Shown here piece after piece: positions 14,459 to 48,380 of a stretch of 64,000 nucleotides of DNA. Origin of the DNA: Acidobacteriota bacterium. GTDB taxonomy: Bacteria; Acidobacteriota; Terriglobia; Bryobacterales; Bryobacteraceae. The stretch is from positions 27,967-91,966 of the forward strand of contig JAJYLS010000001.1 of assembly GCA_021787555.1 (NCBI GenBank). The letters are read 5' to 3'. A model generated the notes under the pieces. The model was given only the letters and a program-made list of their open reading frames with translations, made no database searches and was not told the DNA's origin. The stretch's first letter is position 1; each line of letters starts with the position of its first letter. Both the position numbers and the translations under genes were made by a program.

Positions 14459-14722
14459 ATGCCAAAGTTTCACACTTTATGCTTGCAGAAAGCATTTGAT
14501 CGTCTTAACATAGAACAAATGCGGAATGGTGAACGTTCTCAGATGTATCTAACGACCGCTCGTGTAGCCCGCATTCTGGGAATCAATAAGCGAACCTTGC
14601 ATAACTGGATTAAAGCAGGAAAAATTCCGGGCCCCAACGCCAATCCGGACAATGGATATCTCCAATGGACCATGGCGGATGTTGAGGTCGTCCGCAACGT
14701 GCTGATGGAGGAACCGAAGTGA
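14459..14722 (+). CDS. Small helix-turn-helix DNA-binding protein (excisionase/MerR-like HTH)
   Basis: YLTTARVARILGINKRTLHNWIKAGKIPGP is a typical excisionase-type HTH. The stop overlaps the ParA GTG start (GTGA). The true start is uncertain (ATG at 14459, 14519 or 14543). Confidence 0.6.
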   Translation: MPKFHTLCLQKAFDRLNIEQMRNGERSQMYLTTARVARILGINKRTLHNWIKAGKIPGPNANPDNGYLQWTMADVEVVRNVLMEEPK

Positions 14723-15516
14723 TTCGACTGGTGATTGCCAACCAGAAGGGCGGCGTCGCAAAGACTACGACCACCCTAAGCCTGGCGCGCGAATTTGCGG
14801 AGCGCGGCCTCAAGGTGCTGCTGATCGATATCGACCCCCAGGGCTCCATTGGCGCGAGCCTCGGCCTCAAGGCTGCAAACTATTTGTATAGCTTCGTGAT
14901 CTCGAATTACCGCTTCAAGGACTGCCTGGTGGAGGCGCATCCCGGGATCGATGTGCTGTGCAGCAACCGCGAGACCACGGATATCGAGGGCATTCTGACG
15001 CCGCGGACCGGGCGGGAGCTGATTTTCCAGGTCCTGCTGACGCCTGTCGAGAAGGACTACGACGCCGTGATCATCGACTGCCCGCCGGCCATTTCCCTGC
15101 TCCAGAGCTGCGCGGTGATGTATTCGCAGCAGATCCTGATCCCCCTGACGATGGATCCGCTGAGCCTGCAAGGCGCCTACGCCGCGATCCAGACCTCCGC
15201 CACGCTGAACCGGCTTTTCAAAGCGAATATCCAACCGGTGGCGGTGCTGCCGGTGCAGGTGGACCGGCGGTTGCAGATGACCGACGTGATTCTCGACAGC
15301 CTGCAGTCGCTTTCACGCGAGTACAACATTCCCCTGCTCCCGGCCGTGCGCACCGATTCCACGGTACCCAAGGCGACGCGGGCGCGCCGGTTTCTTCTGG
15401 ATTTCGACCCCAAATGCAAAGCTGTGGAAGACTACCGCCTGGTTGCCGAGCAGTTGCTCGAGCACCTCAAAGGACAGTTGAATGAGCGGCAGTTCGCGCT
15501 CCCGGCAGAAGCGTAA
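14719..15516 (+). CDS. parA: ParA/Soj-family partition ATPase
   Basis: Deviant Walker A in VIANQKGGVAKTTTT, then LLIDIDPQGS and the Walker B region YDAVIIDCPP. GTG start. Confidence 0.9.
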   Translation: MIRLVIANQKGGVAKTTTTLSLAREFAERGLKVLLIDIDPQGSIGASLGLKAANYLYSFVISNYRFKDCLVEAHPGIDVLCSNRETTDIEGILTPRTGRELIFQVLLTPVEKDYDAVIIDCPPAISLLQSCAVMYSQQILIPLTMDPLSLQGAYAAIQTSATLNRLFKANIQPVAVLPVQVDRRLQMTDVILDSLQSLSREYNIPLLPAVRTDSTVPKATRARRFLLDFDPKCKAVEDYRLVAEQLLEHLKGQLNERQFALPAEA

Positions 15517-18366: not shown

Positions 18367-18502
18367 TCATGAGACCTCAGCTCGCGCGTGAAGGCGGCGC
18401 GGTCCGAACCTGCGCCGCGCCGGGGTGCATATGCTATCATCCTTTTTCCCCGATGGAACGTGTGTCCTCATACGCCGCCCCAGGCAAGTTCGCGGCCATG
18501 CC

Positions 18503-19684
18503 ATGAAGCTGCTTTGGGTGAAAACGGATTTTCTGCACCCGGCGACCCGCGGGGGACAGATCCGGACACTGGAAATGCTGCGCCGGCTCCACGCCCGCCA
18601 CACGGTCCACTACGTCGCGTTCGAAGATCCGGCCCATCCGGAAGGTCCGGCGCGGGCGCCGGAGTATTGCTCGTTCGCCTATCCGATCCGGTACCGGGTG
18701 GCGGCCAAGAATAGCTGGGCGTTTGGCGCTCAATTGCTCCGCGGGCTTTTCGATCCCGTACCGGTAGCCGTGAGCCGCTACCGGTGCGGCGCCATGCGGC
18801 GGAAAATTGCGGAGCTGACCGCCCGGGAGTATTTCGATTCCATCGTCTGCGATTTCCTTTTCCCGACGCCCAATATGCCGGACCTTGATTCCTGTGTGCT
18901 GTTCCAGCACAACGTGGAGTGGACCATCTGGCAGCGCCACACGGAGAACGCCTCCGACCCGTGGCGGCGCTGGTACTTCAGCATGCAGGCGCGCCGCATG
19001 TTTGCCTACGAGGGCGCCGTGTGCCGGAAGGTGAAGAAGCTGATTGCGGTTTCGGAAAACGACGCCGCGATCTTCCGCAAGCAGTACGGAGCCGCGGCGG
19101 TGGCGCCGGTGCCCACGGGCGTCGATCTGGATTATTTTGCGCCGCCCGCGTCGCCGGCTCCCACCGCGGACCTCGTATTTCTGGGCTCAATGGATTGGAT
19201 GGCCAACGAGGACGCCATGTTGTGGTTTGCCGCCGAGGTGCTGCCGCTCATCCGGCGCGCCCGCCCGGATTGCCGCCTGGCGATCGTCGGCCGAAGGCCC
19301 ACGGCGCGGATCCGCGACCTGGTGCGCGATCCGCTGATCGAGGTGACGGGGACGGTGGTGGATGTGCGGCCGTGGCTGTGGGGCGCAGCGGTGTCGATCG
19401 TGCCGCTGCGGGTGGGCGGAGGCACGCGGCTGAAAATCTACGAAGCCATGGCGGCGCGAGTGCCGGTTGTTTCCACGAGCGTGGGGGCCGAAGGCCTGGA
19501 CGTTTCGCCCGGCGAAAACATCGCGATCGGGGATACGGCCGCGGACCTGGCGGACCGGTGTCTCGCGCTGCTGGATAGTCCGGCGCGGCGCGCGCAGATC
19601 TCCGATGCCGCCCATCGACTGGTCGCGACGCGGTATTCCTGGGATGCCGCGGTGCGCGTTTTCGAGGACCTCTTGCAGGCATGA
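18503..19684 (+). CDS. GT4 (GT-B) glycosyltransferase, 'stp1-like' EPS sugar transferase, paralogue A
   Basis: MKLLWVKTDFLHPATRGGQIRTLEMLRRL... The C-terminus carries PLRVGGGTRLKIYEAMAARVPVVSTSVGAEGL (the E-x7-E region of GT4). It is collinear with 45174..46379. Confidence 0.85.
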   Translation: MKLLWVKTDFLHPATRGGQIRTLEMLRRLHARHTVHYVAFEDPAHPEGPARAPEYCSFAYPIRYRVAAKNSWAFGAQLLRGLFDPVPVAVSRYRCGAMRRKIAELTAREYFDSIVCDFLFPTPNMPDLDSCVLFQHNVEWTIWQRHTENASDPWRRWYFSMQARRMFAYEGAVCRKVKKLIAVSENDAAIFRKQYGAAAVAPVPTGVDLDYFAPPASPAPTADLVFLGSMDWMANEDAMLWFAAEVLPLIRRARPDCRLAIVGRRPTARIRDLVRDPLIEVTGTVVDVRPWLWGAAVSIVPLRVGGGTRLKIYEAMAARVPVVSTSVGAEGLDVSPGENIAIGDTAADLADRCLALLDSPARRAQISDAAHRLVATRYSWDAAVRVFEDLLQA

Positions 19685-35849: not shown

Positions 35850-38800
35850 TTATGGAACCGCCGTCACCATCAGGGGCGAAGTATACGTAACGGCGCTCCC
35901 GCTGTACATCTTCAGGCGGTACTCGACAATTCTTCCCGAGATACCGGGAAGCGCAATCGTGCACCCCGATGCGCAGGGCAGCGGCGTATAGGCCTCTGTC
36001 TCGAAATAGAACGGGTTGGCCGGGTTGATCGCGCCGGCATTCGCCACGCACGCCTCCTGCCGGGCAGTGCAGTCGAACCGGCCCTCGCCATTCTCCGCGT
36101 ATCCGAACTCCACTACCGCGCCGTCCGCCCCCGCCGCGCCGGGTAGCGTCACCTTGACCGGCGCATAGGCCGCCCGGTTCACGGCATCGCGCACCATGGG
36201 CGGAACCTTGAACAGCTTTATCATCCCATCGGACGCGACCGTTGTGAACAGCCAGGATCCATCCGGAATTGTCCGCGAATTCCAATACTGTATCTGGCCG
36301 TCGTACTTCCCGAAGGAATTACTGATCGTCCGGTGCGTTTTCCCATCGGGATCGTTTGCCCCCAACTGCTGGATCGTGATCCCCTGCGTCCACCTCCATG
36401 CCGTGCTCACGCAGATGTCGTTGGGCGCCGGTGCGCTCCCCTGCAACAGCGTCCAGTCGTTCGTGCAGTACGCATTCGCGATATTGGGGGCGTTGAAATA
36501 GATGTCGCCGGCCTGCGAGCCGTCGTAGCATTCTCCCGCGTTGTACGCCATGCACCATTCGAATTGCGTGGAAGCGTCCGTCGCAAGATGCACGCCCGGC
36601 CCGGAGACCTCTCGCATTGCCCGGTTGCCGCTATGCGCGAAAAAGCCGATTTTTTTATAATTCTGCCGAACGAAGGTGCCCCGGATGCGGTAAAGCTGCC
36701 CCCCTGCCGGCGTAACCTCGGAAGCAGTCACCAGGCCGTAATCCCCCGTGTAAGGGTGATTGTTGACCACTTGTGCGTACGTTAAGGCATCCGGCGGATT
36801 TAGAATAGCAAGCGAAGGATGCGACTCCACAGAGCACGGGGTCGATGAATTCCCGGCGCAGGCCGCGCCGTTATAACCCGGAACAACTATCTGAAACACC
36901 GGATATGTGCTCGTGGTGAACCGGTCGGGTTCCATCCCCTGTTGTGTATTTATCGCGGGCCAAAACGTGGGAGAAAATGTATCCACGATACTCCACCGCC
37001 CGTATGCCGACGAATTCACATACGCCGCGTGGCCACCCCCTAGCCCCGTATCCACATACGAACTGGCATAATCGCTACTTTTGGGGTTCTTGGTATAATT
37101 CCACCACGCCGTTGCGCGGAAACCCGATGTCACCATGTCGAGTGTCCCATTCGGCTGAACCGTATCATAGCCTCGCTTTCCATTGCGGCTATACTGCCGC
37201 TGGATATACCACGTCAACCCATCGCTTCCCTTCTCCAGCAGCCGCGCCAGTTCGTAACCCGAAGAATTGCTGGAATCGATGCTTAGTAAATCGCCGGGAG
37301 CGGCGGGGAAGGACGTAGGAAACCCCGCGGTGGGCGTGTTAATCGTGGCGTCTGCCGATACCGTGATGGTACTGCACCCCTTCACCCACGACACTCCCGG
37401 CCAGTCCGTGATATAACTCCCCGCCGGTTGGCTCATGGTACACGGACTTCCCGAAGCTACCATTCCATTCGGCAGTGTCACTCGGTACACTTGAGCGTTG
37501 TCCTGATGCAGAACATGAAGCACGAGCGGCATCGAACCCGAACCAGGATCGTTCCCCGGCTCCCCCGAATGCAGCGAAGCGTAGCGTAGCGGCGATCCCG
37601 GTCCGCCGAGAAACGTCGAGGTGCTTCCCACAAAACACCCCGGCATCCCTTGATATGTCGTTCCCGTAACGGCAGGGTTATCCACACAGCCAGCGGCGCT
37701 CCCGAACCGCGCGGTCTGTGTCGCGGCGGTGGCATAGGGGTCGAATAACATCAGCCACCCAGGCCCGTTTTGAATGTCCCAACTGCCAATCAGAATCTTG
37801 CCGCTGAAAAAATCAGCGGACCAATACATCCCGCAGCACGCGGACCCGTACGTAGTCCAGTTCGGATCGAACTCAGCAATCAAGGTGTCGAGGCTGCGGT
37901 CGAAATTCGCGTCCGATGGAGTTACGTCGGTAAACCTGGTATGGGGCAGAGAAACCGAAGTTGAATTGACGTCCTGCCCGGACAAATCGGGATCGTTCCC
38001 GGCAACGTCATGGCCGCTGTATGCCGCGGCAATCAAATAGTGCTTGTTTTTATTCCATATCGCCCCATTTCCTAGACCCGGAAGAAATATATAAAACTTG
38101 TTCGGCTCCGACCGGGTAATGTCGAGCAGCGGCGCGGCAGATCCCCAGCCCCTTGCCGGTGCGTGTCGTCCGTCGTATGCCACTTGCATAAGACCCAGGA
38201 ACCTCGTTTCCCCGTCTGAAGCAATCCAGAACAGGCCAACAGAGAAAGGACCGGAGGCACGGACAGGGAGGGCGCAATGGTACCCCGATTTATTTTCGTC
38301 CGATGCTTTCACTGGCGTGGGGTGGCACCACTGCCCGAAGCCGGAAGCCATCATACTTGCCGACGCCCCTGTGAGCACATCCCCCGGCAGCAGCAAGTTT
38401 TTCACTGCCACGCCGGTATGTGGATCCACCGTACTCGCCGTTCGGTCCGTTGCCGATAGGGTCGGATACAAGTAACTTCCGGAATGGTTAGGATCGGCCG
38501 GGATCGCATCGCCGTAACCAAGCCCAGCGGGAACCGTTCCGGTCGAGAAGGCGCCGGTCGATATGCTGTTACCGCTCAGCGACGGGCAGGTGATTCGATA
38601 GTAATATGTTGTGGCGGCGGCCAGGGAGCGGCTGTAGTTATTTCCATCGCTGGCTGTTTCCACCGTCCGCCTGCCGATCGTAAATACGCGAACACGGCCA
38701 TTGGCGTAGCCTCCCGGGCGGTTATCGAAATTCGCCCCCGGGAATAACGTGCCGTTCACGTCCGGCATGAGCGGAGCGTACGTGTTAGAAGGGCTCACCT

Positions 38801-38963
38801 CGACCATGCACGGCTGATTCTCCTCGCCGCTCGGAGCGGAGTAAGTGAGGATGGCTTGTTGCGCGGTTGTGGCCAATACGCGGGCCGACGAGCGCCAGTC
38901 GCCTCGGATCTGCCCCTGAAGAGAAGCCAACAGGAAGCAGACAATCGCTACTCGATATCTCAT
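35850..38963 (-). CDS. Large (1037 aa) secreted protein of unknown function
   Basis: Uninterrupted ORF with signal peptide MRYRVAIVCFLLASLQGQIRG. Cys pairs and Gly/Thr/Ser/Tyr/Trp-rich composition are typical of beta-rich extracellular proteins. GC is lower than in its neighbours. No family motif was recognised. Confidence 0.7.
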   Translation of the reverse strand: MRYRVAIVCFLLASLQGQIRGDWRSSARVLATTAQQAILTYSAPSGEENQPCMVEVSPSNTYAPLMPDVNGTLFPGANFDNRPGGYANGRVRVFTIGRRTVETASDGNNYSRSLAAATTYYYRITCPSLSGNSISTGAFSTGTVPAGLGYGDAIPADPNHSGSYLYPTLSATDRTASTVDPHTGVAVKNLLLPGDVLTGASASMMASGFGQWCHPTPVKASDENKSGYHCALPVRASGPFSVGLFWIASDGETRFLGLMQVAYDGRHAPARGWGSAAPLLDITRSEPNKFYIFLPGLGNGAIWNKNKHYLIAAAYSGHDVAGNDPDLSGQDVNSTSVSLPHTRFTDVTPSDANFDRSLDTLIAEFDPNWTTYGSACCGMYWSADFFSGKILIGSWDIQNGPGWLMLFDPYATAATQTARFGSAAGCVDNPAVTGTTYQGMPGCFVGSTSTFLGGPGSPLRYASLHSGEPGNDPGSGSMPLVLHVLHQDNAQVYRVTLPNGMVASGSPCTMSQPAGSYITDWPGVSWVKGCSTITVSADATINTPTAGFPTSFPAAPGDLLSIDSSNSSGYELARLLEKGSDGLTWYIQRQYSRNGKRGYDTVQPNGTLDMVTSGFRATAWWNYTKNPKSSDYASSYVDTGLGGGHAAYVNSSAYGRWSIVDTFSPTFWPAINTQQGMEPDRFTTSTYPVFQIVVPGYNGAACAGNSSTPCSVESHPSLAILNPPDALTYAQVVNNHPYTGDYGLVTASEVTPAGGQLYRIRGTFVRQNYKKIGFFAHSGNRAMREVSGPGVHLATDASTQFEWCMAYNAGECYDGSQAGDIYFNAPNIANAYCTNDWTLLQGSAPAPNDICVSTAWRWTQGITIQQLGANDPDGKTHRTISNSFGKYDGQIQYWNSRTIPDGSWLFTTVASDGMIKLFKVPPMVRDAVNRAAYAPVKVTLPGAAGADGAVVEFGYAENGEGRFDCTARQEACVANAGAINPANPFYFETEAYTPLPCASGCTIALPGISGRIVEYRLKMYSGSAVTYTSPLMVTAVP

Positions 38964-39008: not shown

Positions 39009-41453
39009 TCAGTAGTGGCAGCCAATGATCGCTTGCCCCTGAAAGGCAACCCAAGTGTCAGGGGGAAGCGCGATCGAGGGATTGAGCAGGCCATTAGTCG
39101 ATGCGCTGCCAGCCGTGCCGCCAAATAGATAGCCGGCATTTTCATAGGGTGCGTATTCCGTCTTTGCGACGGTGGCATTACCGGTAAATAGGGCGTAGCG
39201 CTTACCGGCTGTGATCGTCACAGGCGCCCCGGCTATGGGGCAGGATGCGTAACCCGTGGCGGTAAGGTTGATCCCGTGGCCGCCACTGCCAGCGCAATGC
39301 GCCAGGATATTGCCCGAGGCGTCGGCGATGCCGATATCGTAGTAATCGGTGGAGGTCGGATCGGCGGTATAGACATAGAAATCCAGGGTATTGCACTTCA
39401 GTGTCTGGTCTACGATCAGGCCGAACACGGCGGCGCTGTTGGGGGCAGCCAGGCCAAGGGAATTAGTGGAGATGCCGCCGGCACGAGGGTTTTCCCAGAC
39501 AGTAAGCGCCGGCATATCGGCTTGGCTCATCTGGCTACCATAGTTCTCCGGCCCGAATAAGTCGACCCTGCCCAGGCTGCCGGCAGTTACTGCGTCCAGC
39601 CAGATGCCGATAACCTGTTTGGAAATGTCGATTCCGGCGGTGGAGGTGGCCCCCGAATCGCGGCAGGCGCCGGGGGTGGTGCTGCCCACGATGGCCCGGT
39701 CATTGACGGCCGTGGCATTATCCGCCACACAGGAGACGACACCGCGCGTCGCGACTTCCGTGGCGGCTCCGGTGGTTGCCGTGGAAACGCAAACCCCCAG
39801 AATTCCGGTATCGCCGGCAGCGGGCAGGACAACGCTGCCGGCCGAATCGGTTTTGCAGAGCATGTTGGCGGTGACACCTCCCGCGCCGGCGGTTTTGGTG
39901 CTGCTGAGGTAGCCCGTCCCGAGCGAGGTATTGGGAAGGGATAGGCCGGCAGCGGCGCTCGTGCAGTTGGCGCTGCCGTTGGCGCCAATGCCGGTGGCGA
40001 AGGAGTTGGGCGGACACTGGACCGGCGTGGAGGCCAGGGCGGTGGCCGTGGGGGCGTTGTAACCGCTGGGCATATCCGCGGGCACCAGCGCGCGAAAGAC
40101 CGGCGGCGCGGCCGAGCCGTTGCCTGGGCCGGCGAAAACGGCATTGGCGTTCTGATTGGCCAGCGTCCCGGTGAGCGTGCCGCTACCGGTGATGGGCGAC
40201 CCGGAAACGGAAAACATATCGGGCAGTGAAAGACCGACGCTGGTGACGGTGCCACCGCCGCCGCCGCCGCCCGGGCTGGCGCAGACGCCGTCGGCGCCCA
40301 GAAACGAGCCGGCGGAACAGGTGCCGCTCCAGAGTGCGGTCACGTCGGAGTATCCGGCCGGAACGGCATTACCGGCGCTGCCCTTCAGCAGGCCGGAACC
40401 GCCAATGGAGGGGATGGCGGGCCAGGCAGACGGAGCACCACTGATGGCGGTCTGATAGCCGGTGAAATCGATCCAGCCCTGCGCCAACTTGCCGTTAGTG
40501 CCGGCCTTGGGAATGCCAAAAGGGGAGGATGTGGCGGTGGCGATCTCGTCGCTCCCGCCGTTCTGGTGGGTGGCGGCGTGGGGGGAGGGAGTGAACCGGG
40601 ACGGCACCCCGGCGAGGCTCGACCAGGGATATCCGCCAGGCAGGTCGCCGGAGACGAGCGGGCGCAGCGCCGCGGCATCCACGTTGGAGCCCGAGGAATC
40701 GGTGGCGAGAACCTGGTGGGGCGCGCCGCTGGGCACCGAATTCGCCGGATTGGACGAGAGGTTGACGGTCCAGTCCGCGTAAGTCCCGGCACCGGCGGTG
40801 GTGCTCACATTGACCGCGAGGGTGGTGCCAGAGTAGGAACTGACGACACCGAACATCCACGCCCCGCTGCTGACGGACGTGATCACAACCGAGGCACCGG
40901 GGGAATAGGCCAGGCCGGACTGCGTGGTCAGGGTCCGGGAACCGGTGCCGACGGTGAGGCTGGTGCTCGACGTCGCCGCGTATCCCGGCGGGGTGTTGGT
41001 GACTCCCGGCCAAGCCGGATCTATAGCCAGGGTACAGGTATTGGCTGTGCACACCATGAGCAGGCCAGTACCGGGGACCAGCGCCGAATCGGCAGGCGTC
41101 CAGGTGTCGGCCGAAGTGCACTGGTACAGGCCGGGAGTTCCCGAGGTGAGATAGACCACTCGCGGATCGGTAGAAGGCGAGCAGGTATCCGGCAAACTGG
41201 AGACGGTGCTGAACACGCCGGCAAAGGCATCCCCTTGCAGCGTCCAGACATCGGCGGCGGTGCAGAGGTAGAGGTTCTGGCCAGGAGTGTTGTCGGTCTT
41301 GACGAACAAATCGCCCACGGCGCAGGTTCCGGGCAACGCCGTTCCTGTTTTCATGGGGTTTCTCCCCTGGGTTTGAAGATCGATGCGAGTTTGAGCGGAT
41401 GCGGCCAGGGCGGCCAGACACACGTATTGCGCGACACGTTTCAAGAGGATCAT
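39009..41453 (-). CDS. Secreted phage-tail-fibre-like protein (814 aa)
   Basis: Signal peptide MILLKRVAQYVCLAALAASAQT. A duplicated N-terminal motif is present: TCAVGDLFVKTDNTPGQNLYLCTAADVWT and TCSPSTDPRVVYLTSGTPGLYQCTSADTWT. HAATHQNGGSDEI...IPKAGTNGKLAQGWI, GGGGGGTVTSVGLSLPDMFSVSGSPITGSGTLTGTLANQNANAVFAGPGNGSAAPPVFRALVPADMP are blocks I recall from phage/prophage tail-fibre proteins. Confidence 0.7.
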   Translation of the reverse strand: MILLKRVAQYVCLAALAASAQTRIDLQTQGRNPMKTGTALPGTCAVGDLFVKTDNTPGQNLYLCTAADVWTLQGDAFAGVFSTVSSLPDTCSPSTDPRVVYLTSGTPGLYQCTSADTWTPADSALVPGTGLLMVCTANTCTLAIDPAWPGVTNTPPGYAATSSTSLTVGTGSRTLTTQSGLAYSPGASVVITSVSSGAWMFGVVSSYSGTTLAVNVSTTAGAGTYADWTVNLSSNPANSVPSGAPHQVLATDSSGSNVDAAALRPLVSGDLPGGYPWSSLAGVPSRFTPSPHAATHQNGGSDEIATATSSPFGIPKAGTNGKLAQGWIDFTGYQTAISGAPSAWPAIPSIGGSGLLKGSAGNAVPAGYSDVTALWSGTCSAGSFLGADGVCASPGGGGGGGTVTSVGLSLPDMFSVSGSPITGSGTLTGTLANQNANAVFAGPGNGSAAPPVFRALVPADMPSGYNAPTATALASTPVQCPPNSFATGIGANGSANCTSAAAGLSLPNTSLGTGYLSSTKTAGAGGVTANMLCKTDSAGSVVLPAAGDTGILGVCVSTATTGAATEVATRGVVSCVADNATAVNDRAIVGSTTPGACRDSGATSTAGIDISKQVIGIWLDAVTAGSLGRVDLFGPENYGSQMSQADMPALTVWENPRAGGISTNSLGLAAPNSAAVFGLIVDQTLKCNTLDFYVYTADPTSTDYYDIGIADASGNILAHCAGSGGHGINLTATGYASCPIAGAPVTITAGKRYALFTGNATVAKTEYAPYENAGYLFGGTAGSASTNGLLNPSIALPPDTWVAFQGQAIIGCHY

Positions 41454-41762
41454 GGTGAATTCCTTGGAAGGCAGGACAGGCGCGCCAGAGGGAAGCGTTC
41501 ATTTCCCCGCAAGCCTACTCTCAATTTCACATTACCAAACGGGAGATCTTATACAACACCGCGGGACCTGTAAGTTATTGAAAAGCGAAACAGAAAAAAA
41601 CTTCAAAAACACGTGACCGCTTTTTCTTCACTCTCCCGGCCGAGCGGAATGCGCCCGGCAGTTTGGGTTCGCACCGCACATTCGGCCATGCCGGAGGGTA
41701 AGTTCGAGGACAAGTGTATGCCGCAGATCAAGCAGGACTTATGAACATAATAGTAACTTCGA

Positions 41763-41782
41763 CACAGGCTCGATAACCTGTG
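41763..41782. promoter_or_regulatory. Short inverted repeat CACAGG-N8-CCTGTG immediately upstream of the ligase-like gene start
   Basis: Seen directly. It ends 5 nt before the ATG at 41788, inside a 334-bp AT-richer divergent intergenic region. Function is unknown. Confidence 0.25.
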
Positions 41783-41787
41783 CCACT

Positions 41788-43131
41788 ATGAAGCCGAATC
41801 CGATCCAAACCATCGGGCTGGGGACCCTGGTTCCGTATTTATTCGTCCTATACAGCCGGATATTCGACGTCAAGTTCTCGTGGCTGCACATTCCGATGCT
41901 GCTCTCGACGCTGCTGCTGGTGCTGAGCGCGGTGAGCATGCAGCTTTTCGGGGTGATGTCGCGGACGCGGATCGGCCGCTACCTGGGATGGTTCACAGTT
42001 TGGGCGCTGGTCGGGGTCCCCTTCAGCGTGTGGCGCACGGGAGCCATGGTTCAGGCAACGCAGGTGTGGCCGCGGGCGCTGTTGGTGTTCATCGCGGTGG
42101 GATGCACGGTGACGTCGCTGGCGGGAGTGCGGCGGGCGATTTTCACGCTGGGATTCGCGGTCGTGATTCTGGGGGTGATCAGCCGGATCTGGGGCGAGAT
42201 GCAAGACGGGCGGCTGTTTCTGCCGCAGGGGAAATTCGAGAACCCGAACGACCTGGCGCAGGCGGTGCTGATGGGGTTTCCTTTTCTGCTGTTCATCGTG
42301 ATGGAAGGAAACAACCTGATGAGGTTTCTGGTGTTTTTGGGGGCGATTCCACTGTTCCAGGCGTTGATCCGCACGGGCTCGCGCGGCGGAATGCTGGGAA
42401 TGATCGTCATTCTGTTGTTCGTCTTCTTCCGGTGTTCGCTGGGCGGGAAGATGCTGGCGCTGACTGGCGGGCTTGCGGTGCTGTTGATCACCATGGCAGT
42501 GCTGCCGGAGAGCCTGTTGCAGCGCTACGTCACGCTGTTTCATGCGGGGCCCAGCGCGGCCATGCAATCCAGCGGGTGCCCGACTTGCGTGATGCACCAG
42601 GAAGAGATGGCCGCGGGATCCGCCAACGAGCGTTACCAGTTGCTGAAAGAGAGCATTACCATGTCCCTGGAGAACCCGATTTTCGGGGTGGGGATGGGAC
42701 AATTCCCGGTGGCCAGAGGAATGGACGCCGACCGGCAGGGGATCCACATCCCCTGGCGGGTGTCGCACAATTCGTACACCGAGGTATCCAGCGAAACCGG
42801 CCTGCTGGGGCTGATCCTTTACATGACGTCGTTTTTCGGCTGCATCGGGATGTGCTGGCGACTTGGAAGGTTCGCCGAGGCCCGGGCCCACCCGCAATGG
42901 AAGCTGATTTCGCGGGTGACGTTCTGCCTGCAAATGTCGCTGCTGAGCTACGCAGTAACGAGTTTCTTCGCGAGCGTGGCGTACCAGCAGTATTTTCCGA
43001 CGCTGGCGGGGCTGACGGTGGCGCTGATGCAGGCCGTGGAGCCGGAATACAAGAAATGGAAGCGGCAGACGGAAGCGGCGGCGCAGGCGCCCCTCGATTT
43101 CCAGCGGCGGCGCGTGCTGAGAGCGGCATAG
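41788..43131 (+). CDS. O-antigen ligase/Wzy-like polymerase family membrane protein, paralogue A
   Basis: About 10 TM segments. RTGSRGGMLGMIVILLF, and the periplasmic-loop region HIPWRVSHNSYTEVSSETGLLGLILYM matches the Wzy_C/O-antigen ligase signature (H-N-x-Y...E.G). Confidence 0.85.
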   Translation: MKPNPIQTIGLGTLVPYLFVLYSRIFDVKFSWLHIPMLLSTLLLVLSAVSMQLFGVMSRTRIGRYLGWFTVWALVGVPFSVWRTGAMVQATQVWPRALLVFIAVGCTVTSLAGVRRAIFTLGFAVVILGVISRIWGEMQDGRLFLPQGKFENPNDLAQAVLMGFPFLLFIVMEGNNLMRFLVFLGAIPLFQALIRTGSRGGMLGMIVILLFVFFRCSLGGKMLALTGGLAVLLITMAVLPESLLQRYVTLFHAGPSAAMQSSGCPTCVMHQEEMAAGSANERYQLLKESITMSLENPIFGVGMGQFPVARGMDADRQGIHIPWRVSHNSYTEVSSETGLLGLILYMTSFFGCIGMCWRLGRFAEARAHPQWKLISRVTFCLQMSLLSYAVTSFFASVAYQQYFPTLAGLTVALMQAVEPEYKKWKRQTEAAAQAPLDFQRRRVLRAA

Positions 43132-43176: not shown

Positions 43177-45177
43177 ATGTGCGGGATTGCGGGATTTGTG
43201 AATGTGGAAGCGAGCGACGCGCCGGCGGCGGTCGTGGAGCGGATGAGCGCGACGATCCGGCACCGTGGACCGGATGCATTCGGGTTCTATCGCGATGAGT
43301 ACGCGGCGCTGGGACACCGGCGGCTGAGCATCATCGACGTGAGCGCGGGGGCACAGCCGATGTACAACGAGGACGGGAACCTCGTAATCGTTTATAACGG
43401 TGAAATCTTCAATCACGCGGCGCTGCGGCCGGCGCTCGAAGCGGCGGGGCACCGGTACACGACGCGGTGCGACACGGAAACCATCCTGCACGCGTACGAG
43501 CAGCACGGGCCGGATTGCGTAGCGGACTTTCGCGGGATGTTCTCCTTCGCCATCTGGAACAAGCAGACGCGGACGCTTTTCTGCGCGCGGGACCGGGTGG
43601 GGAAGAAGCCCTTCTATTACTACTGGGACGGGCGGGTGTTCGTATTCGGGTCGGAGATCAAGGCGATCCTGGAACACCCGGCGGTGGCACCGCGGATCGA
43701 GGAAAGCCTGCTGGCGGAGTACCTGGCATTCGGATATGTCAGCGAAGAGCGGACCCTGTTCGCGGGGATCAGGAAGCTGATGCCGGGGCACTGGCTGCGC
43801 CTATCGGCGCGGCAGGAGCCAGGCGGGGTATCCGCCGCTTCCGCGGGCAGGGGTCGAGGAGCCGGGCTGGAGATTCAGCAGTATTGGGAGCTTCCGACGC
43901 CGGGGACAAGCGCGACGCAGGTGGAGCCGCGGAGCGAGCGGCTATGGATCGCGGAATGCCGCAGCCGGCTGGAAGAGACCGTGCGGATGCGTCTGATGAG
44001 CGACGTTCCGCTGGGAATGTTTCTGAGCGGGGGGGTGGATTCGAGCACCATCGCGGCGATCATCCGGCGGCAGGCCTCGGGGCCGGTGAAGACGTTCGCG
44101 GTAGGATACGGCGAGGCGGCCTACAGCGAACTGGAATACGCGCAGTACGTGGCCAAGAGCATAGGGACGGAGCACCACGAGGTGGTCGTGGGGATGGAGG
44201 AGTTTTTCAACGCTCTGCCGATGCTGGTGTGGCACGAAGACGAGCCGATTACGTGGCCGTCGAGCGTATCGCTGTACTTCGTTTCCAAGCTGGCGGCGAA
44301 AGAGGTGAAGGTGGTGCTGACGGGCGAGGGCAGCGACGAACTGTTCGCGGGCTACGACCGCTACCGGTTCTACCTGTGGAACCAGCAATGGGCGCAGTAT
44401 TACGGCGTAGTGCCGGCGGCGCTGCGACGGGCCATCCGGAAGCGGGTGGCGGAGACGCGGCTGCTCTCGGCCACGCTGCGGAGAAAGGTGCAGCATACGT
44501 TCGTGGGGCGGGGCGAGGGGCTGGAATCGCTCTACCTGGATAATTTCTATTGCGCGTTCGGGCACGAGGAGATTCCGCTGAAAGGCACCCCAGGCCGGGA
44601 GGCCTGTGCCACGTTCCGTCATTACTGGGATGAGCGCGGCGGGGCTTCGATGCTGGGGCGGATGCTCTACGCCGATCAGAAGACGTACCTGGTGGAGCTG
44701 TTGATGAAACAGGACCAGATGAGCATGGCCTCCTCGATCGAAAGCCGCGTGCCGTTTCTGGACCATCTGCTGGTGGAGTTCGCGGCGGGGGTTCCCGACC
44801 ATTTGAAGATCCACAACGGGGTGGGCAAGTACATCGTCAAGAAAGCCGCCGAGGACCTGATTCCGCGGGAGATCATCTACCGGAAGAAGATGGGCTTTCC
44901 GACGCCGCTGCGGCAATGGCTGCTGGAGGACCGGGCGACGCCGCTACTGAAGATGCTGGGGCGGAAGGACGGGTTGATCGCGGAATACCTCGACAGGGCG
45001 GCGGTTGCGAAGCTGCTTGAGCAGTACCGCGCGGGGCACATCGACGCCACGGACCGGATCTGGCGGCTGCTGAACCTGCAATTGTGGGGCGATCTTTACT
45101 TCACCGGCCGGCGCGAAGAGATCTGGGACGGGTTGATGAAAACGCAGACAGGCACGAATGCCTGCGCGACCCGATGA
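43177..45177 (+). CDS. asnB: Asparagine synthetase B-type glutamine-dependent amidotransferase
   Basis: Starts MCGIAGF with the N-terminal nucleophile Cys2. HRGPD, ...GEIFNH..., and the PP-loop SGGVDSS in LSGGVDSSTIAA are present. 666 aa. Confidence 0.9.
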   Translation: MCGIAGFVNVEASDAPAAVVERMSATIRHRGPDAFGFYRDEYAALGHRRLSIIDVSAGAQPMYNEDGNLVIVYNGEIFNHAALRPALEAAGHRYTTRCDTETILHAYEQHGPDCVADFRGMFSFAIWNKQTRTLFCARDRVGKKPFYYYWDGRVFVFGSEIKAILEHPAVAPRIEESLLAEYLAFGYVSEERTLFAGIRKLMPGHWLRLSARQEPGGVSAASAGRGRGAGLEIQQYWELPTPGTSATQVEPRSERLWIAECRSRLEETVRMRLMSDVPLGMFLSGGVDSSTIAAIIRRQASGPVKTFAVGYGEAAYSELEYAQYVAKSIGTEHHEVVVGMEEFFNALPMLVWHEDEPITWPSSVSLYFVSKLAAKEVKVVLTGEGSDELFAGYDRYRFYLWNQQWAQYYGVVPAALRRAIRKRVAETRLLSATLRRKVQHTFVGRGEGLESLYLDNFYCAFGHEEIPLKGTPGREACATFRHYWDERGGASMLGRMLYADQKTYLVELLMKQDQMSMASSIESRVPFLDHLLVEFAAGVPDHLKIHNGVGKYIVKKAAEDLIPREIIYRKKMGFPTPLRQWLLEDRATPLLKMLGRKDGLIAEYLDRAAVAKLLEQYRAGHIDATDRIWRLLNLQLWGDLYFTGRREEIWDGLMKTQTGTNACATR

Positions 45178-46379
45178 AGATCCTGTGGGTCAATTCCAAT
45201 TTCATGCATCCCACCAACAAAGGTGGGGCGATCCGGACGCTGGAGATGCTGCTGCATTTGCAGAAGCGGCACGAGATTCACTACGCGGCGATCGAGAACC
45301 CGGCACAGCCGGAAGGGCCGAAGCGGGCGCACGAGTATTCGTACCGGGCATACGCGGTGCGGCACAAGGTTCCGGAGCGCGGGTCGGCGGCGTTCGCGGC
45401 GCAGCTTGTGGGGGGGATGTTTTCGCCGCTGCCGCTGGCCATGAAACGATTCCGGTCAGTGGAGCTGGGCGTGTTTCTGGCGCGGCTGATCCGGGAGGAA
45501 GGCTTCGACCGGATGGTGGTGGACCACCTGACGCCGGCGACTTACTTTCCCGACCTGGAGCACGGCATTTTATTCCAGCACAACGTGGAGACGGTGATCT
45601 GGCGGCGGCACGCGGAGCACGCGGCGGATCCGCTGCGGCGGTTGTACTTCGGAGTGCAGGCGCGCCGGATGTTCGAGTTCGAGCGGCGGGTATGCCGGGC
45701 GGTAGCGCATATCGTGGCGGTATCGGCGGCGGACGCGGAGAACATGCGGAAGCTGTTCGGAGTGACGCATATTTCGGAGATTCCGACGGGGGTGAACATC
45801 GAGCATCATCTCCCGCCTCCGGGCGTCAAGTGCTTTGCCGATCTGGCGTTCGTGGGGTCGATGGACTGGCTGGCGAATATCGACGGGGTGAAGTGGTTCG
45901 TGGAAGTAGTGCTGCCGCTGGTACGGCGGCGCAGGCCGGAAGCGACGTTTGGGGTGATCGGACGGATGCCGCCGCCGGAGATCCGGGCGATGGCCGAACG
46001 CGATCCGAAGATTTTCGTGACGGGGACAGTGGAGGACGTGCGGCCGTACCTGTGGGGGTCGAAGATCTCGGTGGTGCCGCTGCGGATCGGCGGCGGGACG
46101 CGGCTGAAGATTTACGAATCTATGGCGGCCAAGGTGCCGGTGATCTCGACATCCGTAGGAGCCGAAGGGCTGGAGGTGCATCCGCCAGAGAACGCGCGGA
46201 TCGCGGACAGCGCGGAGGATTTCGCGGAGGCGTGCGTGGAGTTGTTGGAGGACGCGGGGGAGCGGACGCGGATGGCGGCGGCGGCGTGGGAGATGGTGAA
46301 CGCGCGGTTTTCCTGGGAGCGGGTGGCGGAGTGCTTCGAGAGGGTGCTGGAGCACACGCCACGCACCTTAGCCGTCTAG
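45174..46379 (+). CDS. GT4 glycosyltransferase, 'stp1-like', paralogue B
   Basis: ATGA overlap with asnB. MKILWVNSNFMHPTNKGGAIRTLEMLLHL...PLRIGGGTRLKIYESMAAKVPVISTSVGAEGL. Collinear with 18503..19684. Confidence 0.85.
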   Translation: MKILWVNSNFMHPTNKGGAIRTLEMLLHLQKRHEIHYAAIENPAQPEGPKRAHEYSYRAYAVRHKVPERGSAAFAAQLVGGMFSPLPLAMKRFRSVELGVFLARLIREEGFDRMVVDHLTPATYFPDLEHGILFQHNVETVIWRRHAEHAADPLRRLYFGVQARRMFEFERRVCRAVAHIVAVSAADAENMRKLFGVTHISEIPTGVNIEHHLPPPGVKCFADLAFVGSMDWLANIDGVKWFVEVVLPLVRRRRPEATFGVIGRMPPPEIRAMAERDPKIFVTGTVEDVRPYLWGSKISVVPLRIGGGTRLKIYESMAAKVPVISTSVGAEGLEVHPPENARIADSAEDFAEACVELLEDAGERTRMAAAAWEMVNARFSWERVAECFERVLEHTPRTLAV

Positions 46380-47270: not shown

Positions 47271-48380
47271 TTACAGGTGGACAGGGCCGTCGCCGTCGCC
47301 GCGGGTGAGATGGATTTCGGGGAGGGCGGCGTCCCAGGGGTCGAGGGAAGCGGCCAGTTTTTTGGAAGCGGCAAAAATGAAGTTGGACGGGCCGGCGCGA
47401 AAGCCGGCGCGACGAAGGGCGGCGCCCCAGGCCTGGTGCGACTGGTTGGAAACGATCAGGTCGACGCCGACGGATTCGAGGAAGGAAGCCGCAGCGGCGG
47501 CGACTGCGGGGGCATCGCCGGGCGCGGCGAAACAATCGGCGATGGCGCCAAGGCGCAGGTTGCCGAAGTAGAGGTGGTCCTGCATGGGGGTATCGAGGAG
47601 GACAGCCCAGCCGAGGGGTGCGGCCGCGCCGCCACGCACCATGATGTTGATAAATCGGGGGTTATCGGCGGGGTAGAGGATGCGGAGCGTGGCGGCGTCG
47701 CGCGAGCCAGCCATGGCGTAAAGCGGGTGACAGCGCTGCCAGAGGTCGTCGGCCCAGGGGCCGAAGCTGCGGACGACCTCAGGGGGCGCGGCGCCGGGGG
47801 CCGCGGGCCGCGAGGCGAGGAGGCGCAGACCGGCCGCGCCGAGGCCGGAATATGCGGCGGCATCGAGGGCCAGGCGGCGCAGCGGAGTGGTGCGGAGGGC
47901 GCGGATGTTGCGGAGGAAGCGAAAGGGGCGGAGAACCTTGAAATAGAACGGAACGGCGGAGAGCTTCCAGCCGGCTTTTACCAGCATGCGGGGGAGCGGG
48001 CGGTCGAAGCCGCCCATCCCGAGGGCATAAAGAACCGGCTGGCGGCGGAGGGCGTCGAGGAGCAACTGCGCGCCGAGGAGGGAGTGGCGCTTGTCGACGA
48101 GGCCTTCGGAAAGCGGCAGGTGATAGTAGCCGATGGAGCGGACGGCGCCACGGAAGGAGAAGTCCTGGTGCTTGAGGATGTAGCCGCCGTGGACTTGAGG
48201 GCCGGAAGCGGCGACGAACATCTCCTGGAAGATGCGGCGGCCGTTCTGGTGGGGTAGCCATTCGGGGATGTCGGCTTCGGGGAATTGGAAGGCGGTTTCG
48301 CCGCCGTCGCGGAGGCGGCGGTTGAAGGCGCGCACGGCGGGGACGTGCTCGGCGGAATAAGGCTGGATGGCGAGAGACAC
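47271..48380 (-). CDS. GNAT/FemAB-like acyltransferase-fold protein
   Basis: 369 aa. The N-terminus is IQPYSAEHVPAVRAFNRRLRDGG. It resembles 57647..58687 in length and architecture. The assignment is weak because no clean acetyl-CoA motif was read. Confidence 0.5.
   Translation of the reverse strand: MSLAIQPYSAEHVPAVRAFNRRLRDGGETAFQFPEADIPEWLPHQNGRRIFQEMFVAASGPQVHGGYILKHQDFSFRGAVRSIGYYHLPLSEGLVDKRHSLLGAQLLLDALRRQPVLYALGMGGFDRPLPRMLVKAGWKLSAVPFYFKVLRPFRFLRNIRALRTTPLRRLALDAAAYSGLGAAGLRLLASRPAAPGAAPPEVVRSFGPWADDLWQRCHPLYAMAGSRDAATLRILYPADNPRFINIMVRGGAAAPLGWAVLLDTPMQDHLYFGNLRLGAIADCFAAPGDAPAVAAAAASFLESVGVDLIVSNQSHQAWGAALRRAGFRAGPSNFIFAASKKLAASLDPWDAALPEIHLTRGDGDGPVHL

Follow-up and report, generated by a model that had tools for sequence, protein, structure and literature searches.

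What is a secreted protein built like a phage tail fibre doing in a chromosomal polysaccharide locus of a soil acidobacterium? The question is raised by P0001, an 814-aa protein encoded at positions 39009..41453, on the reverse strand, of a 64,000-nucleotide stretch of Acidobacteriota bacterium DNA (family Bryobacteraceae; assembly GCA_021787555.1, contig JAJYLS010000001.1); this whole stretch is called the window here. A sequence-only reading had described P0001 as a domesticated fibre with possible adhesive, anchoring or polysaccharide-directed roles. We favour, with modest confidence, the view that P0001 is a chromosomal, Sec-exported, disulfide-bonded and probably trimeric surface fibre, with an anchoring head, a variable binding tip and a design like that of the mosaic adhesive trimer (MAT) fibres of Bdellovibrio bacteriovorus. 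The open reading frame (ORF) is present and intact, its translation gives a secreted mosaic fibre-like protein, and all strings quoted in the earlier reading were located in it. As that reading had stated, P0001 begins with a putative Sec signal peptide (residues 1-20, 41394..41453, reverse strand), MILLKRVAQYVCLAALAASA|QT, which has K/R at its start, a hydrophobic core with a 10-residue Kyte-Doolittle maximum of 2.25, A-x-A at -3/-1 and a predicted cleavage site at ASA|QT. The mature protein contains 18 cysteines, whose pairs are local to the modules described below, and Gly, Ala, Ser and Thr make up 49% of P0001. The gene is present in a single copy in its own genome, where no second protein with any P0001 module, no paralogue and no prophage fibre carrying these modules was found.

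P0001 reads as a chain of at least seven shuffled modules, nearly all of phage tail-fibre type. A word-indexed search with P0001 returned 741 relatives and an exhaustive search of 1.84 billion representatives returned 10821; no full-length homologue was found in either set, and the matches covered short blocks, mainly residues 398-465. Zero matches were obtained with the whole protein against Pfam, PHROGs, NCBIfam and PDB sequences. The modules were delimited by dissecting P0001 against roughly 270 fetched proteins, and all of their coordinates are on the reverse strand. Downstream of the N-terminal head, module M2 (residues 150-245, 40719..41006; PGYAATSSTSL...GTYADW) is present in 12 retrieved proteins, each with 3-10 copies and often amid collagen-like repeats, as in P0018 and P0142; P0018 matches tail-fibre PHROGs via its collagen repeats. 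Module M3 (residues 270-345, 40419..40646) contains HAATHQNGGSDEI at residues 292-304, IPKAGTNGKLAQGWI at residues 314-328 and an HxxxHxxGGSDEI block. It is 74% identical over 54 aa to the Bryobacteraceae protein P0072. Other fibre-like proteins have as many as 17 copies of it, and two of its carriers, P0072 and P0089, match minor-tail and tail-fibre PHROGs. The following M3b (residues 346-391, 40281..40418), with the Cys pair 379/391 and WSGTCSAGSFLGADGVC, is found in 3-6 copies in P0034, P0191 and P0236. The glycine hinge noted in the earlier reading is present, as seven residues and not six by direct reading (residues 395-401, 40251..40271). The commonest shared module is M4 (residues 402-465, 40059..40250), a TVTSVGLSLP...FRALVPADMP repeat with its block at 402-462, which was found in 218 of the ~270 fetched proteins at 60-80% identity and elsewhere forms tandem arrays in which one protein can have as many as 22 stretches. 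Copies of M3 and M4 run into the thousands. M4-sharing homologues match phrog_9625 strongly and one of them, P0117, matches DUF5907 (PF19264) just below threshold; P0001 itself matches neither. M4b (residues 466-505, 39939..40058; Cys pair 480/497) is repeated in 10 retrieved proteins and also occurs in the IMG/VR fibre proteins of L119 and L127.

The distal part of P0001 consists of two further domains. D5 (residues 506-645, 39519..39938), a Cys-containing beta-rich domain of ~135 aa, is 50-58% identical to nine secreted proteins (P0239-P0246 and P0046), several of which start with the same N-terminal module as P0001. C6 (residues 646-814, 39012..39518; GC at third codon positions, GC3, 0.58-0.74) is a near-orphan C-terminal domain and probably a beta-sandwich tip. 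Zero matches to C6 were found among the fetched proteins and in a region-restricted search; the sole signal was a marginal one to the C-terminal domains that follow D5 in P0046, P0246 and P0244 (26% identity over 144 aa; pairwise E 2e-6 against a 3-sequence set, hhalign probability 12%). The GC3 of the last ~64 codons (residues ~751-814; 39012-39200, reverse strand) is 0.58-0.67 versus 0.78-0.90 in the shaft modules, a difference that may reflect a separate history of this orphan tip or a weaker adaptation of its codons.

The head of P0001 belongs to a family of N-terminal modules (N-modules) with the layout signal peptide, Q-T-x-[IV]-D-L-R-T-Q-S-K-x-x-D-F, then C-x2-G-x-x-F...G-x-N-x-Y-x-C...W. 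The first copy (residues 21-75, 41229..41393) joins the leader QTRIDLQTQ to C44...NLYLC64T..D.W70 and was matched by the family profile with an independent E-value of 9e-24, and the second (residues 76-125, 41079..41228; C91...GLYQC112T..D.W118) was matched with 4.5e-5. The doubling of the Cys-bracketed motif (C44...C64 and C91...C112) had been noticed in the sequence-only reading and is borne out by these two profile matches; in addition, a loose pattern of the motif occurred twice in 0 of 20000 shuffles. T22, C44, C64 and W70 are invariant in alignments A4, A8 and A9. P0001 is a divergent member of the family, in that its "QTxxDLRTQ"-type leader is ~10 residues (KSVDFSxAxxTK) shorter than in its relatives and in that it carries the second motif copy.

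Of 25 genomes from the same bacterial family, 16 gave matches to the head profile, with 1-3 copies each, whereas 0 of 16 genomes from sister families did. Across one genome per GTDB species the profile identified 133 loci, and the locus counts given from here on were taken on the best 80 of these. All 80 are labelled Bryobacteraceae, Bryobacterales, Terriglobia or other Acidobacteriota, including the cultured strain KBS 96. The members are 154-1077 aa long (up to 1148 aa elsewhere, in P0072) and have a presequence design in common, with a median length of 20 aa and Gln-Thr at +1/+2. Among 1707 pairs of heads that are at least 55% identical, the bodies align over less than 10% in 759 (44%). The body of P0001 is itself rare in the family, D5 being found in 3/80 loci, M4 in 3/80 and M3 in 1/80, and phage-tail PHROG modules are present in other members as well. 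A second head-bearing gene follows in 8/80 loci. These proteins form an unnamed family, new here and confined to Bryobacteraceae/Bryobacterales genomes, in which a conserved head is combined with interchangeable bodies. In two loci (L013:8676-15440 and L014:10001-17751), N-module genes are followed by unrelated large secreted proteins, namely a 1015-aa protein of no family, a Laminin_G_3 protein and a 997-aa protein with K319L-like PKD; in L013, genes with He_PIG repeats and one that matches GH106 lie further downstream. These two loci hint at a looser rule, a head-tagged fibre plus a large exported partner.

The window is a Wzy-type polysaccharide locus. Its glycan genes, assigned with Pfam, encode UDP-glucose dehydrogenase, Bac_transf, UDP-GlcNAc 2-epimerase, GT1, GT2, PMT-like and two Wzy_C proteins, and further genes encode an asparagine synthase (AsnB), two polysaccharide deacetylases, a DegT/GFO fusion, a hexapeptide acyltransferase and VanZ-like and FkbH-like proteins. 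No phage structural, lysis or packaging family was found in these 64 kb, including ten Pfam-less ORFs that were scanned against PHROGs, in agreement with the earlier remark that such genes are missing nearby. An orthologous locus is present in another genus (genome G011), with identities of 68% for AsnB, 61% for GT1, 57% for the deacetylase, 46% for the gene at 47271 and 44% for FkbH. At the equivalent site it encodes first a 693-aa protein that has the head and an unrelated body, next another head-bearing protein, and after these a homologue of P0002, the protein encoded next to P0001. On the basis of this synteny, the family distribution, the absence of phage genes and the absence of a virion-attachment domain, the P0001 gene is cellular and is no prophage gene. 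The earlier proposal that it lies in a chromosomal glycan locus and is not part of a prophage is thus upheld by a position that is kept in the orthologous locus.

A further argument of the sequence-only reading, foreign origin suggested by GC content, did not hold. A contrast exists and is modest, but it concerns the neighbouring gene at 35850-38963 and not P0001, and its size had been overstated: the neighbour has 58.9% GC, with a median of 59% in 200-bp windows (55-58% had been claimed), and the region at 43.2 kb, put at about 72%, measured 64.5-66.5%. P0001 has 65.1% GC and a GC3 of 76.2%, compared with 63.6 +/- 2.7% and 78.3 +/- 4.1% for the other window genes. Since both values are typical of the window, the argument from GC fails, and the lower-GC neighbour is a conserved gene; foreign origin on this ground was rejected after windowed GC and GC3 profiling.

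The blocks that had been associated with tail fibres do have phage relatives, M3 and M4 being common to proteins encoded in phage tail modules. The top homologue, P0003, sits among tail terminator, sheath, tube, Baseplate_J and wedge genes, a contractile-tail module, and it too begins with a signal-peptide-like sequence. P0033 and P0011 lie on phage-like contigs with co-directional small ORFs and endolysin-type genes, and the N-terminus of another phage-type homologue, P0012, matches baseplate-wedge and virion-structural PHROGs. Matches to cultured phages were few and are annotated as tail fibre or minor tail protein. Phage fibres with the TVTSVxLxxP...FRxLxxxDxP repeat have M4 in common with P0001 at 58-80% identity, with M3, M4b and the Cys motif in related proteins and the same Gly/Ser/Thr/Ala-rich composition. 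Named examples of the M4 type are UFOVP505_56 of an uncultured Caudovirales phage ('Bacteriophage lambda, Stf, side tail fibre-repeat-2' in UniRef and BFVD), the tail fibre of Cylindrospermopsis phage Cr-LKS3 and a minor tail protein of Achromobacter phage Motura. In contrast to these repeat fibres, P0001 has one M4 copy instead of a tandem array, begins with a Bryobacteraceae head, gives no PHROG match, lies outside any phage structural module and is without an N-terminal virion or baseplate attachment domain. The similarity to tail-fibre proteins was found at the sequence level, as shared modules and PHROG matches, and the homologues do not come exclusively from prophages: the modules occur in phage tail clusters and some relatives of the head in chromosomal glycan loci.

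The Cys motif of the head also turned up in IMG/VR, on 14 contigs and mostly within large fibre proteins that bear a signal peptide. True phages account for at least three of the 14, namely L117 (major head and scaffold), L127 (major head) and L124 (portal/adaptor). Because genuine phage fibres have them too, neither a signal peptide nor cysteine pairs nor even this motif prove that a gene is cellular. Fibre-like ORFs that combine the Cys motif with clear signal-peptide-like starts are L117:5420-8926, L119:6099-9149, L123:5089-6393 and L126:6870-8930, and these directly support the existence of Sec-exported fibres in soil phages. Another IMG/VR entry, L114 (IMGVR_UViG_3300046698_000540), carries in the last 8.6 kb of its 100-kb contig a complete P0072-type N-module protein of 1098 aa followed by a 1122-aa ORF; this end of the contig is possibly host sequence flanking a predicted prophage, and not phage DNA.

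Structure prediction was informative for the head. The AlphaFold2 (AF2) model of P0001, made with the 17-row alignment A3, had a mean predicted local distance difference test (pLDDT) score of 43.6, and the head alone was confident, with pLDDT 86-96 over residues 31-70 and 63-85 up to residue 120, forming small beta units. As AF2 was confident in this part only, we infer the shaft fold, the tip fold and the oligomeric state. Profiles of the head, M2, M4 and D5 gave nothing significant against the PDB, and the P0001 model gave zero Foldseek matches to the PDB. A Foldseek search of BFVD returned uncultured Caudovirales fibre proteins with TM-scores below 0.1; these matches are sequence-driven and were not used as structural evidence. 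A depolymerase role, one of those put forward in the sequence-only reading, was rejected: P0001 has neither a beta-helix nor a catalytic domain, no Beta_helix, pectate-lyase or GH family being found in it with Pfam and NCBIfam and no sequence or fold match in the PDB. The homologue P0009 has a Beta_helix, in a part that P0001 is without.

The gene of P0002 (35850..38963, reverse strand), a 1037-aa secreted protein, lies 45 bp downstream of P0001 on the same strand. No terminator-like site was found in the gap, and the two genes are probably in one operon. In the public annotation the P0002 gene begins at Met53 (985 aa); because Q36 and C52, invariant in 22 homologues, precede Met53, the 1037-aa ORF with its signal peptide is the correct gene. 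P0002 has the lowest GC3 in the window (68.3%), and neither a Pfam family nor a catalytic family was recognised in it. About 22 full-length homologues, 45-49% identical, are encoded in similar glycan loci of related genomes (Wzy_C, AsnB, glycosyltransferases and methyltransferases), one of which has a ParA-recombinase module like that of the window. Their neighbours, usually directly upstream, are one or two secreted proteins whose only resemblance to P0001 is the N-terminal head. A P0002-type gene follows an N-module gene in G000, G011, G013, G021, L016, L017 and L018, and in the family as a whole a P0002 homologue was found within 6 kb in 20/80 loci and directly downstream in 14/80. In the cultured strain KBS 96 (locus L034/L020) the pair consists of a 283-aa N-module protein and a P0002 homologue. 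The AF2 model of P0002 (pLDDT 68; predicted TM-score, pTM, 0.62) shows an FN3-like N-domain, a large all-beta core and a C-terminal beta-sandwich, and we read the core of this model as propeller-like; Foldseek gave only weak matches to FN3 and to GH32/43 propellers, those to the propellers with E about 1e-3, and the TM-scores were very low. The large proteins downstream of the heads in L013, L014, L023 and L024 were considered as P0002 relatives and ruled out by BLAST and profile searches. Next to an N-module gene in L028 (G021:C4, 12045-15504), two overlapping ORFs of 437 and 732 aa together make up a P0002 homologue, a split that points either to a frameshifted pseudogene or to an assembly error, and the G021 genome gave eight P0002 match rows, apparently from about three loci.

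Upstream of P0001, a divergent intergenic region (41454..41787) separates it from a Wzy_C gene (41788-43131, forward strand). An AGGA-type ribosome-binding site lies 8-11 nt before the ATG, and a simple scan of the region found no sigma-70-like site. Elsewhere in the window, the ParA gene at 14719-15516 (forward strand), part of a helix-turn-helix-ParA-recombinase module, is 94.7% identical to its counterpart in a metagenomic locus, L017:15581-16375; the glycan genes and P0002 homologue of L017 are only ~46% identical to those of the window. This suggests a recently shared mobile module within otherwise diverged glycan loci. In addition, the GT1-type genes at 18425-19684 and 45084-46379 (both forward strand) match one and the same gene in G011 and in G020 (57-61% and 53%) and appear to be paralogues duplicated within the locus.

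In the fibre reading that we favour, signal peptidase would cut after Ala20 and expose Gln21, and the 18 cysteines of the mature chain would form module-local pairs outside the cytoplasm. M2, M3, M3b, M4 and M4b, drawn from the phage tail-fibre pool, would build an elongated and probably trimeric shaft as in their phage relatives, homology to phage fibres being the ground for proposing a trimer. The conserved head would anchor the fibre at its proximal end to some conserved component of the Bryobacteraceae envelope, maybe a glycan layer or, where the locus has one, the adjacent FN3/propeller-like protein of the P0002 family. The variable distal end, formed by D5 and C6, would bind a ligand, most likely a glycan.

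The closest precedent for this design is found in Bdellovibrio bacteriovorus, whose MAT fibres combine a signal peptide and a conserved ~130-aa N-domain with trimeric phage-like fibres and swappable tips (Caulton et al. 2024, PMC10769870). MAT fibres and P0001 are both cellular, signal-peptide-bearing, phage-tail-fibre-like proteins of ~1000 aa, in which a conserved beta-rich domain right after the signal peptide is followed by a long phage-like shaft and by diverse, swappable C-terminal tips. Neither N-domain has a structural homologue, and both are presumed to bind a cell-surface element. Tip exchange of the MAT type was observed here as well, in the form of conserved heads with unrelated bodies in 44% of the close-head pairs and of the different body in G011. 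The likeness that we claim is one of design and not of membership. The P0001 head is analogous to the MAT N-domain but a different and shorter unit, consisting of a leader and one or two disulfide-bracketed motifs of ~50 aa. Moreover, the host of P0001 is a non-predatory soil acidobacterium and the family has 1-3 copies per genome, compared with 21 MAT fibres in Bdellovibrio; and P0001, unlike the MAT fibres, is encoded in a glycan locus beside a conserved propeller-like partner and has no S74 chaperone domain. MAT fibres are trimeric and located at the surface, whereas P0001 is a putative trimer with a proposed surface location. A functional parallel for the gene pair is provided by Vibrio cholerae, in which the biofilm matrix proteins RbmA, RbmC and Bap1 are encoded between the vps-I and vps-II polysaccharide clusters. 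These secreted proteins have FN3-type and beta-propeller-type folds and bind their cognate polysaccharide and surfaces. They may serve as a functional analogy for the P0001/P0002 pair, which likewise consists of secreted proteins encoded in an exopolysaccharide locus; they are unrelated to the pair in sequence and, unlike P0001, are not built of phage-fibre modules and do not have the conserved-head/variable-body design.

Several observations weigh against the fibre reading. At most ~28% of the family loci have a recognisable homologue of the window's locus genes within 6 kb, a count that takes in a small amount of non-glycan material and overlooks glycan genes that differ from those of the window; the link of the family to polysaccharide loci is therefore frequent, not general. 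P0002 homologues accompany only about one quarter of the family members, which rules out P0002 as a universal anchor. Signal-peptide fibres of genuine phages also contain the head's Cys motif, mostly internally, and for this reason the head is not a purely cellular invention. AF2 was uninformative for 85% of P0001, and the shaft region of the monomer had a pLDDT below 50. Finally, a Sec-exported P0001 would still have to cross the outer membrane.

Exopolysaccharide loci encode hydrolases and matrix proteins of their own, and P0001 could accordingly be a glycan-handling accessory instead: a carbohydrate-binding partner of P0002, itself possibly a glycosidase or lyase, the pair trimming, remodelling or organising the polysaccharide of the locus. 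Both would then act in the periplasm or the matrix, as binding subunit and enzyme or as matrix proteins, and P0001 would be no adhesin for foreign surfaces. The close spacing of the two genes on one strand with no terminator-like site between them, the Wzy-type setting and the recurrence of the pair in G011, G013, G021, L016, L017 and L018, where the stop codon of one gene often overlaps the start codon of the next, are consistent with this, as are the propeller-like core of P0002 with its weak Foldseek likeness to GH32/GH43-type propellers and, in L013, the GH106-matching gene that lies downstream of the N-module genes at a distance of several genes. However, the TM-scores of that likeness are very low and no catalytic family was recognised in P0002, three quarters of the N-module genes are without a nearby P0002 homologue, the large secreted proteins downstream are often mutually unrelated, and no carbohydrate-binding module was recognised in P0001. 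We regard this accessory role, the main rival of the fibre reading, as unlikely, though worth keeping in view.

Much less probable are two explanations that start from phages. P0001 might be a prophage remnant or a phage moron, a tail-fibre gene that a phage left behind or brought in and that does nothing for the cell. Phage fibre proteins, some of them with signal peptides, contain every one of the shaft modules and even the Cys motif, and a ParA/tyrosine-recombinase module lies ~21 kb away in the window, its ParA having a 95% identical homologue in L017. The 64 kb without any phage structural, packaging or lysis family, the typical GC and GC3, the intact long ORF, the missing virion-attachment N-domain, the position kept in the orthologous locus of another genus and the presence of the family in 16 of 25 same-family genomes at 1-3 copies all argue the other way, and we consider a remnant very unlikely. 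Alternatively, the protein could act at the interface of phage and host, the exported fibre masking the cell's own glycan receptor as a decoy or exclusion factor, or its gene serving as a recombination reservoir for phage tips. Host chromosomal genes and phages do draw on one pool of Sec-exported fibre modules, bodies turn over fast between relatives, and the gene lies in a locus for a surface glycan, which is a typical phage receptor. Such a role is purely inferential, and we give it little credence: no defence family was seen beside the gene, in a survey that included no search aimed at defence families, and the genome contains no second protein carrying these modules, so that no resident phage partner is visible. 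Broader still, and speculative enough to be judged rather improbable, is the idea that the N-module is a lineage-specific docking tag that mounts exchangeable phage-derived fibres on the Bryobacteraceae envelope via the locus glycan or P0002-type partners. As the fibres of Acidobacteria phages are likewise Sec-exported and contain this Cys motif and these shaft modules, host and phage would share an extracytoplasmic fibre toolkit in which chromosomal genes act as reservoir or decoys in host-range evolution.

Acidobacteria are among the most abundant soil bacteria, and to our knowledge almost nothing is known of their cell-surface biology; a literature search on Acidobacteria, tail fibres and exopolysaccharide found nothing relevant. 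P0001 is not a new kind of system, and the function given to it here is a proposed one. If the fibre reading is right, the arrangement of constant head, phage-like shaft and swappable tip, described in 2024 for prey recognition in Bdellovibrio, would also be used by non-predatory soil Bryobacteraceae, in a version set in a surface-glycan locus, with an unnamed head domain of its own and a recurring ~1000-aa partner that has no assigned fold family. The confidently folding 50-aa disulfide motif and the gene pair in the cultured strain KBS 96 offer handles for work at the bench. Our data also add to the evidence for Sec-exported fibre modules that are common to soil phages and their hosts.

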